In this document: one piece after another, positions 26,806 to 61,493 of the stretch | Layout of the letters: every line of letters starts with the position of its first letter | How positions within the stretch are numbered: the first letter of the stretch is position 1 | Assembly (NCBI GenBank): GCA_020060565.1 | Contig: JAGVAE010000002.1 | Span: forward strand, 179,255-243,254 | Source: Candidatus Woesebacteria bacterium | Lineage (GTDB): Bacteria; Patescibacteriota; Microgenomatia; UBA8517 | Length of the DNA: 64,000 bases | Reading direction: 5' to 3' | Position numbers and translations under genes: made by a program | Notes under the pieces: generated by a model | What the model was told of the DNA's origin: nothing | What the model saw: the letters and a program-made list of their open reading frames with translations, nothing else | Databases searched by the model: none

Positions 26806-27285
26806 ATGGCAAGAAGAGGACAAGTTAAACCAAGAAAAATAGAAATAGATCCGATTTACAAAAGTGCACTCCTTACGAAGTTAATCAATAGGAGTATGAA
26901 GGATGGCAAAAAATCAGTAATTAGAAAAGAAATATATAGGGCACTTGAGATTATTAAAGAAAAAACCAATGAAGACCCAATTGCTGTTTTTGATAGGGCA
27001 ATGGAGAATATCAAACCCAACATGGAAGTTCGCCCCAGAAGAGTAGGGGGAGCAGCCTATCAAGTTCCTCAACAGGTAAGAGGAGAAAGGCGTGAATCAT
27101 TAGGAATTAGATGGTTGGTTGCTGCAGCTAACTCCAAATCAAATACAGAATTTCACACTTTTGCAGAGAAAATGGCAGCTGAAATTATGGATGCAGCCAA
27201 AGGTGAGGGAGTGTCAGTAAAGAAACGACAGGAAGTAGAAAAAATCGCAGAATCAAATAAAGCTTTTTCTCATTTTCGCTGGTAA
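26806..27285 (+). CDS. rpsG: 30S ribosomal protein S7
   Basis: MARRGQVKPRKIEIDPIYKS…GGAAYQVPQQV…. Confidence 0.95.
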   Translation: MARRGQVKPRKIEIDPIYKSALLTKLINRSMKDGKKSVIRKEIYRALEIIKEKTNEDPIAVFDRAMENIKPNMEVRPRRVGGAAYQVPQQVRGERRESLGIRWLVAAANSKSNTEFHTFAEKMAAEIMDAAKGEGVSVKKRQEVEKIAESNKAFSHFRW

Positions 27286-27325: not shown

Positions 27326-27574
27326 ATGAATAAAGAAATTACTCCAGATATGAAATGGGCAACTCGTAAGTTGATAAAGAATGATTACCCTGAAAGATAT
27401 TGGGACTATTATTTAAAAGTAGCAGCGAAAGATTTATCTGGTATGCATGAGCAGATTGCGCTAGTGCTGATAGCTAAAGGTATATATCCCAGGCCAGTAG
27501 GTAAAGTTATTAAAAAACTTCAAAAAGAGGGTTTGGCTGACGGAGCAGGTATTGACTCGGCTAGGAACAGATAG
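27326..27574 (+). CDS. Hypothetical small protein inserted between rpsG and fusA
   Basis: 82-aa ORF with no recognisable family. It sits inside the otherwise universal str operon. Confidence 0.45.
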   Translation: MNKEITPDMKWATRKLIKNDYPERYWDYYLKVAAKDLSGMHEQIALVLIAKGIYPRPVGKVIKKLQKEGLADGAGIDSARNR

Positions 27575-27648
27575 AATTGTCCAATTGAATAACAGTCTCT
27601 ATCCTGTTAAAATCACTCTTGCTTCCTGAAAAAGGGAGTTTTTCTTGT

Positions 27649-27682
27649 CCTTTAGGATTTAGGAATTAGGGTTTAGAATTTA
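27649..27682 (+). repeat. Degenerate heptamer (TTTAGGR, telomere-like) tandem repeats
   Basis: CCTTTAGGATTTAGGAATTAGGGTTTAGAATTT lies just upstream of the fusA ATG. It is related to the repeat inside miaA at 60654-60716. Confidence 0.6.
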
Positions 27683-27689
27683 TTTATAT

Positions 27690-29858
<2,169 letters not shown>

Positions 29859-40417: not shown

Positions 40418-40975
40418 ATGAATAGACTTAAAGAAAAATACAACAAAGAAATTAAGGAAGTTTTGATTAAAGAATTGGGAGTAAAAAATACAATGTCACT
40501 TCCAAAACTAGTAAAGGTTGTTGTTAATATGGGAATTGGAGAGGCTGCCAAGAGTAAACAAGCAATGGAAGCTTTGCAAAAAGACATGGCGGCGGTTACT
40601 GGACAGTTCCCATCAACAAGAAACGCTAAAGTTTCAATTGCAAGTTTCTCTCTTAGGGCTGGAATGCCAGTTGGCCTTTCCGTTACTTTGAGAGGGGAAA
40701 AGATGTATTCATTCTTGGATAGACTATTCTCAATAGTTTTGCCTCGTTTGAGAGATTTTAGGGGAGTGTCTGATAAATCTTTTGACAAACAAGGAAACTA
40801 TACACTTGGACTAGTGGAGCATACAGTTTTTCCCGAGATTGATTCAACTAAATCAGCTGCCCCTCATGGAATGGAAATTACGATCGTAACAACGGGGGGG
40901 ACCATGTTAAAATCCAAAAAGCTTTTGGAACTACTTGGAATGCCATTCACTAAAGAATTAAAAATTGAAAATTAA
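40418..40975 (+). CDS. rplE: 50S ribosomal protein L5
   Basis: MNRLKEKYNKEIKEVLIKELG…; 185 aa. Confidence 0.95.
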   Translation: MNRLKEKYNKEIKEVLIKELGVKNTMSLPKLVKVVVNMGIGEAAKSKQAMEALQKDMAAVTGQFPSTRNAKVSIASFSLRAGMPVGLSVTLRGEKMYSFLDRLFSIVLPRLRDFRGVSDKSFDKQGNYTLGLVEHTVFPEIDSTKSAAPHGMEITIVTTGGTMLKSKKLLELLGMPFTKELKIEN

Positions 40976-40987
40976 AAATTAAAAATT

Positions 40988-41173
40988 ATGTCAACAACAG
41001 CAAAAGAAGTTAGAGAAACAAAAAAGTTAAAGTACAAAGTTAGATATCATAACCGCTGCAAGATCTGTGGAAGGTCCAGGGGCTATATGAGAAAATTTGG
41101 CCTTTGTAGACTCTGTTTTAGAGAACATGCCCTTAGGGGCGAGATTCCTGGAGTTAGAAAGGCTAGTTGGTAA
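40988..41173 (+). CDS. rpsZ: 30S ribosomal protein S14, zinc-binding type Z
   Basis: 61 aa; [23 protein letters not shown]. Confidence 0.9.
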
Positions 41174-49192: not shown

Positions 49193-49426
49193 TTGTTTCC
49201 AAAAGGATTAATGAAAACAACAGGAACAATCGAGGTTGAAGGGAAAGTATTACAGGCTTTGCCCAATACAATGTTTAGGGTGGAACTAACAGATGGTAGG
49301 CTTATTTTGGCCACACTTAAGGGAAAAATGAGAAGAGCGTATGTTAGAATTTTTCCTGGGGATAGAATAAAAATAGAGATGACACCATATGATGAGAATA
49401 GAGGTAGGATAGTTTTTAAATTCTAA
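49193..49426 (+). CDS. infA: Translation initiation factor IF-1
   Basis: GTIEVEGKVLQALPNTMFRVELTDGRLILATLKGKMRRAYVRIFPGDRIKIEMTPYD. Confidence 0.9.
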   Translation: MFPKGLMKTTGTIEVEGKVLQALPNTMFRVELTDGRLILATLKGKMRRAYVRIFPGDRIKIEMTPYDENRGRIVFKF

Positions 49427-49459
49427 GTACTGTGTACTAAGTACTTAGTACTAAATATC

Positions 49460-49573
49460 ATGAAAGTAATTAGTTCAATTAAACCAAGATGTAAAGATTG
49501 CAAATATGTTAAGCGCCGAGGCGTTTTATATATTATTTGTAAAAATCCCAGGCACAAACAGAGACAGGGGTAA
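49460..49573 (+). CDS. rpmJ: 50S ribosomal protein L36 (not in the ORF track)
   Basis: ATG at 49460. It translates to [37 protein letters not shown] (37 aa, a C-C-C-H zinc ribbon), with a TAA stop at 49571-49573. Confidence 0.85.
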
Positions 49574-55593: not shown

Positions 55594-55656
55594 ATGGTTG
55601 GATGGTAAAATGGTCAAATGGTTAGAAACCATATAGCTATGTAACCATATAACCAT
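55594..55656 (+). promoter_or_regulatory. ATGGT(x4)/ACCAT(x3) inverted repeat array between recA and recX; the last ACCAT fuses to the recX ATG
   Basis: AAATGGTTGGATGGTAAAATGGTCAAATGGTTAGAAACCATATAGCTATGTAACCATATAACCATG. ATGGTT-AGA-AACCAT forms a 6-bp hairpin, and the other copies allow alternative pairings. Confidence 0.55.
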
Positions 55657-56293
55657 GCCGCGAATCACTTCAATCAAACAGCAAAAGAATAAAAATAGAG
55701 TTAATGTCTATCTGGATGATGAATTTTCATCCAAAGGACGACCAGCCTCTGGCTGGGGTTTTGGGATAGATCTTGATAATTTTGTTTTACTTAATCTGAA
55801 AGTGGATATGGAGCTGACAGAGAAAGAAATAGAAGATATTGTCAAAAAAGCGGAGTATCAAAAAACTCTGGATAAACTTCTGAAGTTTGCCATGGTTCGA
55901 CCCCGATCTGAAAAAGAGATAAGAGACTACTTTAGACGGAAAAAAGTACACGAAAGCATGCACTCAGAATTAACTAAAAAACTCAAGCACTTAGAACTTA
56001 TCAACGATGAAAAGTTTGCCAAATGGTGGATTGAGCAACGACAAAATTTTCGACCAAAACCAAAGAGAATATTAAGTATTGAACTACGGATTAAAGGGAT
56101 TAAAAAGGAAGTAATTGATGAGGTGTTGGGGGAGGAAATAGTTGATGAAGAAAAAATGGCAAGGGAGTTACTAGAAAAAAAGGTCTATAGATGGAAAAAC
56201 TTAGGACCTAAACTCGCCAAGCAAAAAATGTCACAGTATTTGGCGGGAAAAGGCTTCTCCTGGGATGTCATTGAAAAAGTGACCCAAAAATAG
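55655..56293 (+). CDS. recX: Regulatory protein RecX
   Basis: Tandem three-helix repeats: …AMVRPRSEKEIRDYFRRKKV…DEKFAKWWIEQRQNFRPKPKRILSIELRIKGIKKEVIDEVL…. Confidence 0.8.
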   Translation: MPRITSIKQQKNKNRVNVYLDDEFSSKGRPASGWGFGIDLDNFVLLNLKVDMELTEKEIEDIVKKAEYQKTLDKLLKFAMVRPRSEKEIRDYFRRKKVHESMHSELTKKLKHLELINDEKFAKWWIEQRQNFRPKPKRILSIELRIKGIKKEVIDEVLGEEIVDEEKMARELLEKKVYRWKNLGPKLAKQKMSQYLAGKGFSWDVIEKVTQK

Positions 56294-59689: not shown

Positions 59690-60471
59690 TGTTTAAAAAA
59701 TATTTAAAAATTTGGTGGATAATGAGCAGGAATTCTTTTGTGATGGTCATGACACAAAGAGTTTCCTTTTTTACCTTTTTACTTGGGAAAATTATTAGAT
59801 TTTCGTTTTTCTTTATTTTCCTTTTCTTTATTCTTCAGGGAGCCAAGACTTTGGCTGGGTATGGAGCCAATGAAATAATATTTTTCTTTTTAACATTTAA
59901 TTTCATTGATATAGTTTCGCAGTTTTTATTTAGGGAAGTTTATCGTTTTCAGCCAATGGTAGTTTCGGGAGACTTTGATTTTGTAATGGCTAAGCCAATC
60001 AGTCCACTCTTTAGAGTTCTTATGGGAGGGGCTGATGTTGTTGATTTGATTACTATTCCACCACTATTGGTTGCATTGGTTTATTTTGGAAGTTTACTAC
60101 ATCCAAGTGTAATAGAAAGCGTACTGTATGTTGCACTTGTTCTCAATGGTTTATTAATAGCAACAGCGTTTCATATCATTATTTTGTCTCTTGCAATAAT
60201 CTCTACAGAGATTGATCACATGGTTATTATTTATAGAGATATAACAAGTTTGGGTAGATTTCCAGTTGATATTTACAAACAACCCCTTCAGGCATTTCTG
60301 ACATATATTATTCCAATTGGTGTAATGGTGACGGTTCCCGCAAAAATCATGATGGGGGTAGTTGGTTTGTGGGGAGTGGTTAGTGCGTTTATAGTAGGAA
60401 TTGTGTCAATTTTTGTAGCCTTAAAATTTTGGAATTTTGCATTAACGAAGTACACCAGTGCATCTAGTTAA
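59686..60471 (+). CDS. ABC-2 family transporter permease (second subunit)
   Basis: 261 aa, polytopic; ATGA overlap with the preceding permease. Confidence 0.7.
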   Translation: MMFKKYLKIWWIMSRNSFVMVMTQRVSFFTFLLGKIIRFSFFFIFLFFILQGAKTLAGYGANEIIFFFLTFNFIDIVSQFLFREVYRFQPMVVSGDFDFVMAKPISPLFRVLMGGADVVDLITIPPLLVALVYFGSLLHPSVIESVLYVALVLNGLLIATAFHIIILSLAIISTEIDHMVIIYRDITSLGRFPVDIYKQPLQAFLTYIIPIGVMVTVPAKIMMGVVGLWGVVSAFIVGIVSIFVALKFWNFALTKYTSASS

Positions 60472-60497
60472 CTATCTAACTATCTAATTATTTAACA

Positions 60498-61493
60498 ATG
60501 AACAAATTATTAATAATTTGTGGTCCAACCGCAACAGGTAAAACTAGACTTGGAATCTCCTTGGCCAAAAAATTTAATGGGGAAATTGTTTCAGCTGATT
60601 CTCGTCAAGTTTTTGTTGGTATGGATATAGGAACGGGCAAGGATCTGCCCGCAAACTCTAAACTCCAAACCCTAAACTCTAAATTAGGATTTAGAAATTC
60701 GGATTTAGGATTTTACCTGATTCAAGGAATCAGGTTGTGGGGTTATGATTTAGTTTCCCCTAAAGATGAATTCAGTGTTTCCAAATATTTAAGGTGTGTT
60801 CAGAAAGTAATTGGGGATATTGAAAAGAGGGGCAAGCTTCCTATCTTGGTTGGCGGAACGGGATTATATATAAAAGGTGTGGTTGATGGAATACCAACGG
60901 TGGATATTCCACGTAATAAAAAATTAAGGGAAAACCTGGAAAAACTAACGGCTGATGAAATGTATGAACACCTTTCCCAAATTGACTCTTTTCGTGCCGG
61001 AGCAATGAATTCATCTGACAAGAAAAATCCCAGGCGTCTTATACGTGCAATTGAGGTGGCTATGTGGATGATTGATAACTCACAAAGGAACTTTCCACAA
61101 AATAAGAAAGCATTTAATACTTTGTTTATAGGGCTTTCTGCTCCGAGTGGATATTTGGAGAAAAAAATAAACAAAAGAGTAGAGGCGAGAATTGATATGG
61201 GGTTTGAGAAAGAAGTTGAAAACCTAATTAAATTTGGGGTTGATTGGAATGACCAATCTATGATGTCACTTGGATATAGGCAGTGGAGGGACTTTGCTGA
61301 AGGGGCTGTGGAGAAGGAGCGTGCGGTGTCTGAATGGAAAAAGGAGGAGAGAAAATATGCCAAACGCCAGATTACCTGGTGGAAACGTGATGGGAGGATA
61401 AACTGGTTTGACATTAGAGAGGCCGATTATCCAAAAAAGGTGGAAAATCTGGTCAAAAAGTGGTATAAAGTAAATAATGTTGCGAAAGATTGA
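60498..61493 (+). CDS. miaA: tRNA dimethylallyltransferase with an in-frame low-complexity insertion
   Basis: The P-loop is LIICGPTATGKT; SADSRQVFVGMDIGTGK follows. A ~25-aa insertion (LPANSKLQTLNSKLGFRNSDLGF) is encoded by heptamer repeats. Confidence 0.9.
   Translation: MNKLLIICGPTATGKTRLGISLAKKFNGEIVSADSRQVFVGMDIGTGKDLPANSKLQTLNSKLGFRNSDLGFYLIQGIRLWGYDLVSPKDEFSVSKYLRCVQKVIGDIEKRGKLPILVGGTGLYIKGVVDGIPTVDIPRNKKLRENLEKLTADEMYEHLSQIDSFRAGAMNSSDKKNPRRLIRAIEVAMWMIDNSQRNFPQNKKAFNTLFIGLSAPSGYLEKKINKRVEARIDMGFEKEVENLIKFGVDWNDQSMMSLGYRQWRDFAEGAVEKERAVSEWKKEERKYAKRQITWWKRDGRINWFDIREADYPKKVENLVKKWYKVNNVAKD
60654..60716 (+). repeat. Heptamer tandem repeats in inverted arrangement (AAACYCY x4, then ATTTAGR x4) inside miaA
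   Basis: AAACTCTAAACTCCAAACCCTAAACTCTAAATTAGGATTTAGAAATTCGGATTTAGGATTTTA. The second half is related to the intergenic repeat at 27649-27682. Confidence 0.6.

Follow-up and report, generated by a model that had tools for sequence, protein, structure and literature searches.

The 64-kb stretch of Candidatus Woesebacteria DNA analysed here (contig JAGVAE010000002.1; hereafter the window) contains the tRNA dimethylallyltransferase gene miaA and, within it, a degenerate array of 7-nucleotide (nt) units that is translated as part of the enzyme (Table 1). The gene product matched the Pfam IPPT family (PF01715) at 184 bits (E=4e-54) against a cut-off of 23.6, and carries both the P-loop motif GPTxxGKT, as GPTATGKT at residues 9-16, and the DSxQ motif, as DSRQV at residues 34-38, which places it among the MiaA enzymes. 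A protein search returned 7989 homologues, those with a source-given name being called tRNA dimethylallyltransferase or MiaA, and the MiaA structures 2qgn, 3d3q and 2zm5 were matched with E-values down to 6e-51. Coordinates are those of the window unless a locus is named; labels beginning with L denote fetched miaA-neighbourhood DNA loci of the candidate phyla radiation (CPR), and labels beginning with P denote homologous proteins.

Written in one phase, the array reads CTCTAAA CTCCAAA CCCTAAA CTCTAAA TTAGGAT TTAGAAA TTCGGAT TTAGGAT; it is imperfect, with 73-83% matches in its two four-copy halves according to Tandem Repeats Finder (TRF). Since three units of 7 nt make seven codons, the units are read in three successive frames and every three of them encode one heptapeptide. 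An earlier interpretation made from the letters alone, the sequence-only reading, had described heptamer repeats in frame within miaA, translated the segment as LPANSKLQTLNSKLGFRNSDLGF and pointed out that gain or loss of a single unit would shift the frame of the gene, 7 not being divisible by 3. Our analysis agrees on each point; the repeats are there as it wrote them, but they begin at 60653, one base before the start it gave (60654).

In a lag-7 scan of 63-nt segments along the entire 64 kb, only the miaA array passed (0.70 at 60651), with no passes in 20 Markov shuffles, and true period-7 arrays were found at four loci in the window versus 0.04 per shuffled window. The query (TTAGGAT)x3, with up to three mismatches, matched only the miaA array and positions 27651-27682, upstream of fusA, against an expectation of 0 matches; the array near fusA is the related one to which the sequence-only reading had drawn attention. 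The lone heptamer TTTAGRR showed no enrichment (80 found, 84 expected), and it is the tandem arrangement, not the frequency of the single heptamer, that is non-random. Over the array core the lag-7 match was 0.66, the miaA gene mean being 0.31 and the maximum elsewhere in the gene 0.46, and it exceeded a resampling null in which the same peptide was re-encoded with the gene's own codon usage (p=0.0002). The array is a heptanucleotide simple sequence repeat whose units follow one another head to tail, in one phase, beyond chance expectation.

Table 1. Coordinates of the miaA features, the related array near fusA and the arrays in genes neighbouring miaA at other CPR loci (locus numbering where a locus is named)
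Feature	Coordinates	Strand	Basis or content
miaA open reading frame (ORF), tRNA dimethylallyltransferase, 331 amino acids (aa)	60498..61493	+	ORF list, Pfam, homologues, PDB matches
Lineage-specific linker/insert, residues 49-80 (DLPANSKLQTLNSKLGFRNSDLGFYLIQGIRL), between GTGK motif and strand WGYDL	60642..60737	+	Orthologue alignment, phmmer to 2qgn, AlphaFold2 (AF2)
Degenerate heptanucleotide array	60653..60715	+	Nine units, single phase; three heptapeptides NSKLQTL / NSKLGFR / NSDLGFY
First sub-array, AAACTCT AAACTCC AAACCCT AAACTCT (CTCTAAA-type units)	60653..60680	+	TRF: period 7 x4.4, score 48
Second sub-array, AAATTAG GATTTAG AAATTCG GATTTAG GATTTTA (TTAGGAT/TTAGAAA/TTCGGAT units)	60681..60715	+	TRF: period 7 x4.3, score 39; also a period-14 row, score 49
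8-bp hairpin CCTGATTC-AAG-GAATCAGG, coding YLIQGIR (predicted beta-hairpin turn), directly after the array	60716..60734	+	Folds and alignment
(TTTAGGA)x4.6, same unit family as the miaA array, separate intergenic locus	27651..27682	+	Between 82-aa ORF and fusA
Neighbour-gene arrays, L006	581-613 and 942-975		
Neighbour-gene arrays, L008	634-685 and 962-995		
Neighbour-gene array, L037	430-460		
Neighbour-gene array, L038	312-340		
Neighbour-gene array, L065	705-773		
Neighbour-gene array, L074	3500-3525		
Neighbour-gene array, L142	295-321		

The array occupies a linker characteristic of the lineage

The phmmer alignment of the window protein to 2qgn skips from query residue 48 (chain 49) to query residue 83 (chain 63), and in solved MiaA structures about 13 residues stand where the window protein has 34, which bears out the low-complexity insertion relative to canonical MiaA that the sequence-only reading had proposed. 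That reading also held that MiaA orthologues have no such segment, and here it was mistaken. We aligned 50 homologues and, for the top 120, tabulated how many residues separate GTGK from WGYDL, which could be scored in 98: this linker was 25-26 aa long in 62, 29-33 aa in 13 and 8 aa, the insert-less 'GK-EWGxG-hKI-WGYDL' form, in 23. The 75 close homologues with 25-33 aa show an N-S-K-h-x-h-x / N-S-K-L-G-x-Y pattern, the common form among orthologues being DLPxNSK-h-x-h-x-NSKLG(G)xY. Alignment with orthologues, a check that had been suggested together with these claims, delimited the insert to the residues given in Table 1. Of the finding that the sequence-only reading had named as speaking against it, the same peptide in orthologues on non-repetitive DNA, half is borne out: orthologues do share the peptide, but in the nearest group the DNA is again repetitive.

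The window linker is 32 aa long. A nearly identical 32-aa peptide is found in P0002 (80% identical), and a third heptad is also present in P0035 and P0071. The names attached to homologues and loci put the insert-bearing lineage in CPR/Patescibacteria, in the Microgenomates/Woesebacteria area. The insertion is real with respect to canonical MiaA, yet a feature of the lineage and not private to the source genome. The difference between the 25/26-aa and 32-aa linkers amounts to about three units; L085 and L086, with 25-aa linkers, are one heptad shorter than the window, whose lineage has one extra heptad, equal to three units or 21 nt. This gain (+7 aa) probably lies in the first sub-array, a placement of the extra 21 nt that we infer because the first four units are near-copies of each other and the later units match the L085 array.

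An AF2 model of the window MiaA has a mean predicted local distance difference test score (pLDDT) of 84. In it the stretch 49-70 is largely coil, pLDDT falls below 50 in the middle heptad (residues 61-68), and confident hairpin strands follow at 71-75 and 78-81. The model predicts that the insert is a loop or beta-hairpin extension on the core domain. We take the peptide to be probably a tolerated, solvent-exposed extension, rich in Lys, Asn, Ser and Gln, and it may, speculatively, help tRNA binding.

Repeat units are homogenised within genomes beyond the demands of the peptide

Genome and metagenome scans with a MiaA alignment gave, among the matches listed, relatives of at most 58% identity, and the DNA of closer relatives was obtained through exact-protein look-ups; ten orthologue DNAs of the periodic NSK type were analysed. 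The arrays of L085 (TTCGAAA TTAGAAT TTAGAAA TTCGAAA TTAGGAT), L086 (TTCTAAA TTGAAAA TTGGAAA TTGGAAA) and L084 (a C-type half, then a G-type half) are in the same phase as that of the window, and unit-by-unit comparison with L081, L082 and L085 showed the second sub-array to be homologous to the arrays of L085 and L081. Orthologues have unit types of their own, namely TTCGAAA, TTCAAAA, TTCCAGA, TTAAAAA (in P0014, as TTTAAAA TTAAAAA TTAAAAA TTTAAAA) and TTGGAAA. By the rule that (AATTxyA)x3 is translated as N-(Txy)-K-(TTx)-(yAA)-I-(xyA), the DNA could be predicted from the peptide alone, and three such predictions were confirmed by DNA fetched later: NSKFEIR (P0076), predicted to be (AATTCGA)n, is encoded by TTCGAAA TTTGAAA TTCGAAA TTCGAAA; NSKFKIQ (P0080), predicted to be (AATTCAA)n, by TTCCAAA TTCAAAA TTCAAAA TTCAAAA; and DSRFQIP (P0057), predicted to be of TTCCAGA type, by TTCTAGA TTCCAGA TTCCAGA TTCTGAT.

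A 7-nt period could arise from selection on the peptide alone, if a repeated beta-hairpin of the N-S-K-L type written in AT-rich codons (AAT TCN AAA TTR) mimicked it with no repeat dynamics at the level of DNA. The motif is indeed conserved in many orthologues, linker length is held tightly at 25-26 aa, and synonymous resampling by itself raises the lag-7 match to 0.40-0.53, far above the level of the gene at large. However, all ten NSK-type inserts lay above that null (p = 0.0002-0.04), with lag values of 0.54-0.68 against gene means of 0.25-0.31; lag 7 was the best lag in eight of them, and L081 and L085 were best at its multiples 14 and 21. The orthologue inserts are more strongly 7-nt periodic than their peptides require. 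In inserts of the 'KIKYPWFSKYGYY' type periodicity is slight or absent, L096 showing none (p=0.34) and L001 a weak one (lag 7 0.37, p=0.04).

Furthermore, units are more alike within a genome (identity 5.58/7) than at the same unit position between genomes (4.70/7; permutation p=1e-4). Which synonymous Ser codon is used (TCG, TCA, TCC or TCT) varies in step with the non-synonymous positions of adjacent units, and synonymous third positions are all G in L168 and all A in L169. This within-genome homogeneity of units indicates concerted evolution at the DNA level, and copy-number differences combined with homogenisation of units are what one would expect from the repeat dynamics of a microsatellite. 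Given also that period 7 is the sole enriched period, and that unrelated heptamer arrays are present at a second MiaA loop, in MiaB and in GatB, as set out below, the explanation by peptide selection alone is already disfavoured and we judge it improbable.

Period 7 dominates the sampled CPR loci

Our sample comprised 171 fetched CPR miaA loci (475 kb), in which period 7 was the commonest period found by TRF (53 of 210 rows). A TRF-independent scan, requiring four copies and at least 85% lag match for k = 4-15, returned 39 matches at k=7 and at most two for any other k; shuffles gave none at k>=6 and about two at k=4-5. Period-7 arrays lay inside long ORFs in 50 of 57 cases, the sense strand having more A than T in 45 of these 50, and, of the 65 loci whose linker has 14 aa or more, 19 contained a strongly 7-periodic stretch.

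In intact miaA genes, in-frame period-7 arrays occur at residues ~50-70 (19 loci by TRF) and at residues ~188-206 (11 loci). Arrays at the first site extend to lineages whose protein identity is as low as ~35-55%, their units having diverged and being specific to each lineage; in L091 this site holds (AAATTCC)x8.7 at 753-813 (TRF score 101), encoding NSKFQIPNSKIKIPNSKFQ. The second, again in window numbering, is the variable loop after the insertion-domain helices in other CPR lineages, examples being L091 1171-1224, L006 2059-2092, L037 2102-2134, L097 1100-1131 and L111 1171-1204; the window's own miaA shows no periodicity at residues ~188-206. In-frame heptamer arrays are also found in neighbouring genes, coding for MiaB (UPF0004 + Radical_SAM + TRAM), GatB and an OB-fold (tRNA_anti-codon) protein (Table 1). 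All array-bearing neighbours are tRNA-handling enzymes, in a sample biased to miaA neighbourhoods. A search of a protein database with a synthetic (NSKFKIQ)x6 peptide returned only hypothetical ORFs of 38-73 aa, which are uninformative on host proteins.

Arrays of this kind could make miaA a contingency locus, in which gain or loss of a single unit toggles the gene and so modulates translation fidelity. In favour of this are a unit length that is not a multiple of 3, the dispensability of miaA in model bacteria, and the long near-perfect arrays of some relatives, such as L091. A precedent exists in the phase-variable neuO gene (PMC13001214). Against this, no frame break between the P-loop and the GGTGLY motif, and hence no neuO-type OFF allele, was seen in the 132 assessable loci, a count that is not decisive as ascertainment favours intact genes; the ORF is intact in every one of the 30 loci where TRF found an array at either MiaA site; and the window array is short and degenerate, its 73-83% matches setting it apart from a long near-perfect tract of the neuO type. 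Phase variation of miaA therefore seems to us very unlikely. Two truncated homologues, P0055 and P0068, were considered as frameshifted OFF alleles and set aside, both belonging to the insert-less 'EWG' lineage and being uninformative on the array.

Inverted and telomere-like appearance of the array

The sequence-only reading had seen telomere-like repeats in inverted arrangement, forming an imperfect palindrome of ~60 nt. In relatives the unit core is TTCGAA, which is palindromic, and single substitutions convert it to TTCTAA or TTAGAA, which are reverse complements of each other; the inverted look therefore needs no inversion. What lies in miaA is one direct, single-phase array in which variants of the TTCTAA and TTAGAA types are reverse-complementary as they stand. 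The palindrome survives only in a weak form, its arms being 72% complementary and the 81-nt fold having z = -1.56, and the likeness to telomeres does not hold, as only one of the nine units is AAACCCT. Both the resemblance to telomeres and the inverted look arise incidentally from the unit, which is AT-rich and has a palindromic core. A telomeric repeat was accordingly rejected, the array also lying inside an ORF in mid-contig and TTTAGRR showing no enrichment, and a hairpin formed by the two array halves was rejected on the 81-nt fold, no stem being conserved across orthologues.

Directly after the array, at 60716-60734, lies the 8-bp stem, which dominates the folds of six orthologues. On alignment A2, 95.8% of cells pair and three of the eight pairs are changed on both sides, a level reached by 4 of 500 shuffles; the double changes are CG to UA (twice) and GC to AU, and four of the changes are synonymous. 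This covariation, in six related sequences only, is no more than suggestive, and the pairing could reflect selection on structure or quasi-palindrome template switching. A functional nucleic-acid structure, in which inverted heptamers and the adjacent stem would form an RNA or DNA hairpin regulating miaA through pausing, processing or attenuation, might be read from this stem, which keeps pairing through its three double changes, and from the z of the insert folds, which is below zero in most sequences (-2.5 for the window and -3.4 for L082, with a mean of ~-1.9 over 11 sequences). However, the array itself has no conserved pairing and its arms and fold are as weak as described above; in L169, L170 and L171 the fold z lies between 0.0 and -1.0; the covarying stem comes from a few related sequences in which template switching could give the same pattern; and no T-run follows the stem, which is thus not an intrinsic terminator. 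We regard such a regulatory hairpin as distinctly improbable.

The imperfectly inverted arrangement, the second similar array upstream of fusA and the varying presence of the insert among close relatives are what a miniature mobile insertion, as the sequence-only reading had ventured, or a telomere-derived sequence might leave behind. Yet the site is occupied in the distant lineages mentioned above by diverged, lineage-specific units, only two arrays of this unit family exist in 64 kb, and the array, with its single AAACCCT unit, lies within an ORF. Inspection by eye showed neither terminal inverted repeats, apart from the palindromy of the unit, nor a target duplication, no formal search having been made. 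We give next to no credence to either origin. A miniature inverted-repeat transposable element was rejected on the same grounds, the 72% complementarity of the arms being explained by the palindromic unit.

A coding microsatellite as the probable explanation

We believe that the segment is probably an evolving coding heptanucleotide microsatellite in a surface loop of MiaA, read in three frames and remodelled within each lineage. An array of 7-nt units, ancestrally perhaps of about the TTCGAAA type, lies in frame between the GTGK motif and the next core beta-strand, and three successive units, read in the three frames, give one heptapeptide, so appearing in the protein as N-S-K-h-x-h-x repeats. 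The loop insertion is common to most MiaA of Microgenomates-type CPR, with one heptad more in the window lineage. Continual remodelling could take place by replication slippage, unequal exchange, or contraction followed by re-expansion, selection presumably retaining only those variants whose total length keeps the frame. Slippage or exchange under such frame selection would lead to lineage-specific, internally homogenised units. The recombination hotspot once suggested for this site would stand only in the sense of repeat slippage and homogenisation.

Several points weigh against this model. The presence or absence of the insert does not track similarity in the rest of the gene, and simple vertical descent with slippage does not account for the pattern: the insert-less form is interleaved with insert-bearing forms among the closest relatives (P0015-P0049), P0005, the closest homologue of the window protein (88% identical once the insert is masked; L087 1627-1683 versus window 60624-60752), is of the 8-aa 'EWG' form, close pairs are often of opposite state (P0001/P0005, 88%; P0006/P0023, 90.5%), and mean rest-of-gene identity is 0.779 for short-short, 0.773 for long-long and 0.767 for short-long pairs. 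Such mixed states suggest recombination of the segment or repeated loss. Linkers of 18-19 aa, the intermediates of turnover by three units (-3/+3), are absent among the 120 closest homologues, and therefore homogenisation of units at constant length is unexplained. Part of the periodicity is peptide-derived, the mean of the resampling null being already 0.40-0.53. Only ten periodic orthologue DNAs were available and some are related (window and L081), inflating their apparent independence; slippage and variation in unit number are deduced from between-species comparison only; and as all sampled loci are miaA neighbourhoods, the statement that in-frame heptamer arrays are general in CPR genes is an extrapolation.

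Comparison with known repeat systems and significance

The closest known case is the coding heptanucleotide repeat of neuO, carried by phage CUS-3 of E. coli K1, where 5'-AAGACTC-3' is repeated and a full-length protein is made only at a copy number divisible by 3 (PMC13001214). In both, a coding heptanucleotide repeat is read in three frames and adds a heptad-periodic peptide to an enzyme. However, the neuO array is long and perfect (3-53 copies), lies at the 5' end of an accessory phage gene and has demonstrated ON/OFF switching, with ~66% of genomes OFF (PMC13001214), whereas the miaA array lies inside the gene of a conserved housekeeping enzyme, is short (4-9 units) and degenerate, stays in frame in all 132 loci and is common to a wide radiation with lineage-specific units.

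TAACTGA heptamer direct repeats of Beggiatoaceae, cyanobacteria and Bacteroidetes occur in 2-6 copies, mostly a few nt upstream of start codons, including those of ribosomal protein operons; they place stops in three frames, and a few are read in reverse orientation as the 7-aa repeat LSVISYQ (MacGregor 2015; PMC4679880). The window arrays before fusA, an S14-like gene and an L36-like gene (starting at 27651, 40951 and 49423) fit this upstream-of-start pattern by location only, their units being others, and the miaA array differs in both unit and position. TAACTGA is a single fixed unit at many loci, thought to be horizontally spread, with in-ORF cases at protein ends or in hypothetical proteins; CPR units, in contrast, vary by site and lineage, and the array in miaA falls in a loop inside a conserved enzyme.

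Heptameric simple sequence repeats are reported to be over-represented in many bacteria, polymerase slippage being the proposed cause (PMC4692102). Among them are cyanobacterial heptanucleotide repeats and those of the GGGAATC type in Xanthomonas and Nostoc, which are intergenic, G-rich and G-quadruplex forming. The likeness lies in an excess of period 7 over neighbouring periods, in length and sequence that vary between close relatives, and in the proposed slippage; the CPR arrays differ in being A-rich on the sense strand and mostly within ORFs. The amino acid tandem repeats (aaTRs) of Borgs are likewise fast-evolving, A-biased tandem repeats that create new, probably disordered protein segments within ORFs, but virtually all of their in-ORF units are divisible by three (PMC9879509), whereas the CPR unit of 7 nt keeps the frame only per three units, each unit being read in three frames.

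In the literature searched, no description linking Patescibacteria or CPR with such coding heptamer repeats was found. Non-triplet microsatellites are normally purged from coding DNA or used as on/off switches of accessory genes. Here a 7-nt repeat persists in frame in a conserved tRNA-modification enzyme across a large bacterial radiation, its unit re-homogenised in each lineage, and among short repeats of the sampled CPR loci period 7 far outnumbers any other period, with most arrays intragenic. It is this persistence, the concerted evolution and the apparent generality in CPR genes that give the miaA array its interest. For annotation, such segments count as genuine coding sequence, despite their resemblance to low-complexity junk or mobile inserts.

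In Ohno's model, coding sequences are said to have originated in repeated oligomers of a length not divisible by three; such a repeat reportedly yields a peptide with a period equal to the unit length, the same in every frame, and the model is said to have been proposed for primordial genes. The difference here would be an ongoing addition of loop segments to existing enzymes. It is conceivable, though we hold this with more doubt than confidence, that CPR/Patescibacteria have a heptamer-specific process by which 7-nt arrays are continually seeded in frame, and homogenised anew, in those loops of conserved tRNA and translation enzymes that permit them (two loops of MiaA, and MiaB and GatB), an ongoing Ohno-type birth of segments, the Lys/Asn/Ser-rich loops perhaps being kept for RNA binding or as rare frameshift switches. 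If what was seen in the sampled loci holds genome-wide, it would offer a natural, datable system for the birth of peptide segments from simple DNA repeats, and would bear on why slippage favours 7-nt units and how reduced, uncultured genomes diversify protein loops.

Other repeat arrays in the window

The array at 27651-27682 ends 7 nt before the fusA ATG at 27690 and is by eye ~82% identical to 60684-60715. Its units each hold TAG, giving stops in all three frames, and the fusA start that follows has no obvious Shine-Dalgarno sequence at the usual distance. The 82-aa ORF (MNKEITPDMKWATRKLIKNDYPERYWDYYLK...) at 27326-27574 lies between an S7-like gene (26806..27285) and fusA, in an otherwise rpsL-rpsG-fusA order, and a terminator-like stem with a T-run is present at ~27620-27645, between this ORF and fusA.

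Two further heptamer arrays were noted. At 40951-40988, (AAAAATT/TAAAAAT)x5.3 (TRF score 60) includes the final codons of ORF 40418..40975 (...ELKIEN*; from its position, likely rplE) and reaches the ATG at 40988 of the S14-like gene; at 49423-49454, (CTAAGTA)x4.6 lies between the end of an infA-like ORF (49426) and the L36-like start at 49461. All three heptamer arrays outside miaA thus abut the start codons of genes for translation, a placement that matches the description of TAACTGA repeats (PMC4679880).

Repeats of eight nucleotides were also seen. The entire gap between the stop of the upstream ABC2-membrane ORF (60471) and the miaA ATG (60498) is filled by a period-8 array at 60469-60496, TAACTATC TAACTATC TAATTATT TAACA, with stops in all three frames. 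At 55594-55654, intergenic octamers occur in inverted order, ATGGTTGG ATGGTAAA ATGGTCAA ATGGTTAG followed by AAACCATA TAGCTATG TAACCATA TAACC; they end at the ATG of ORF 55655..56293, and hairpins between their ATGGT and ACCAT units are possible.

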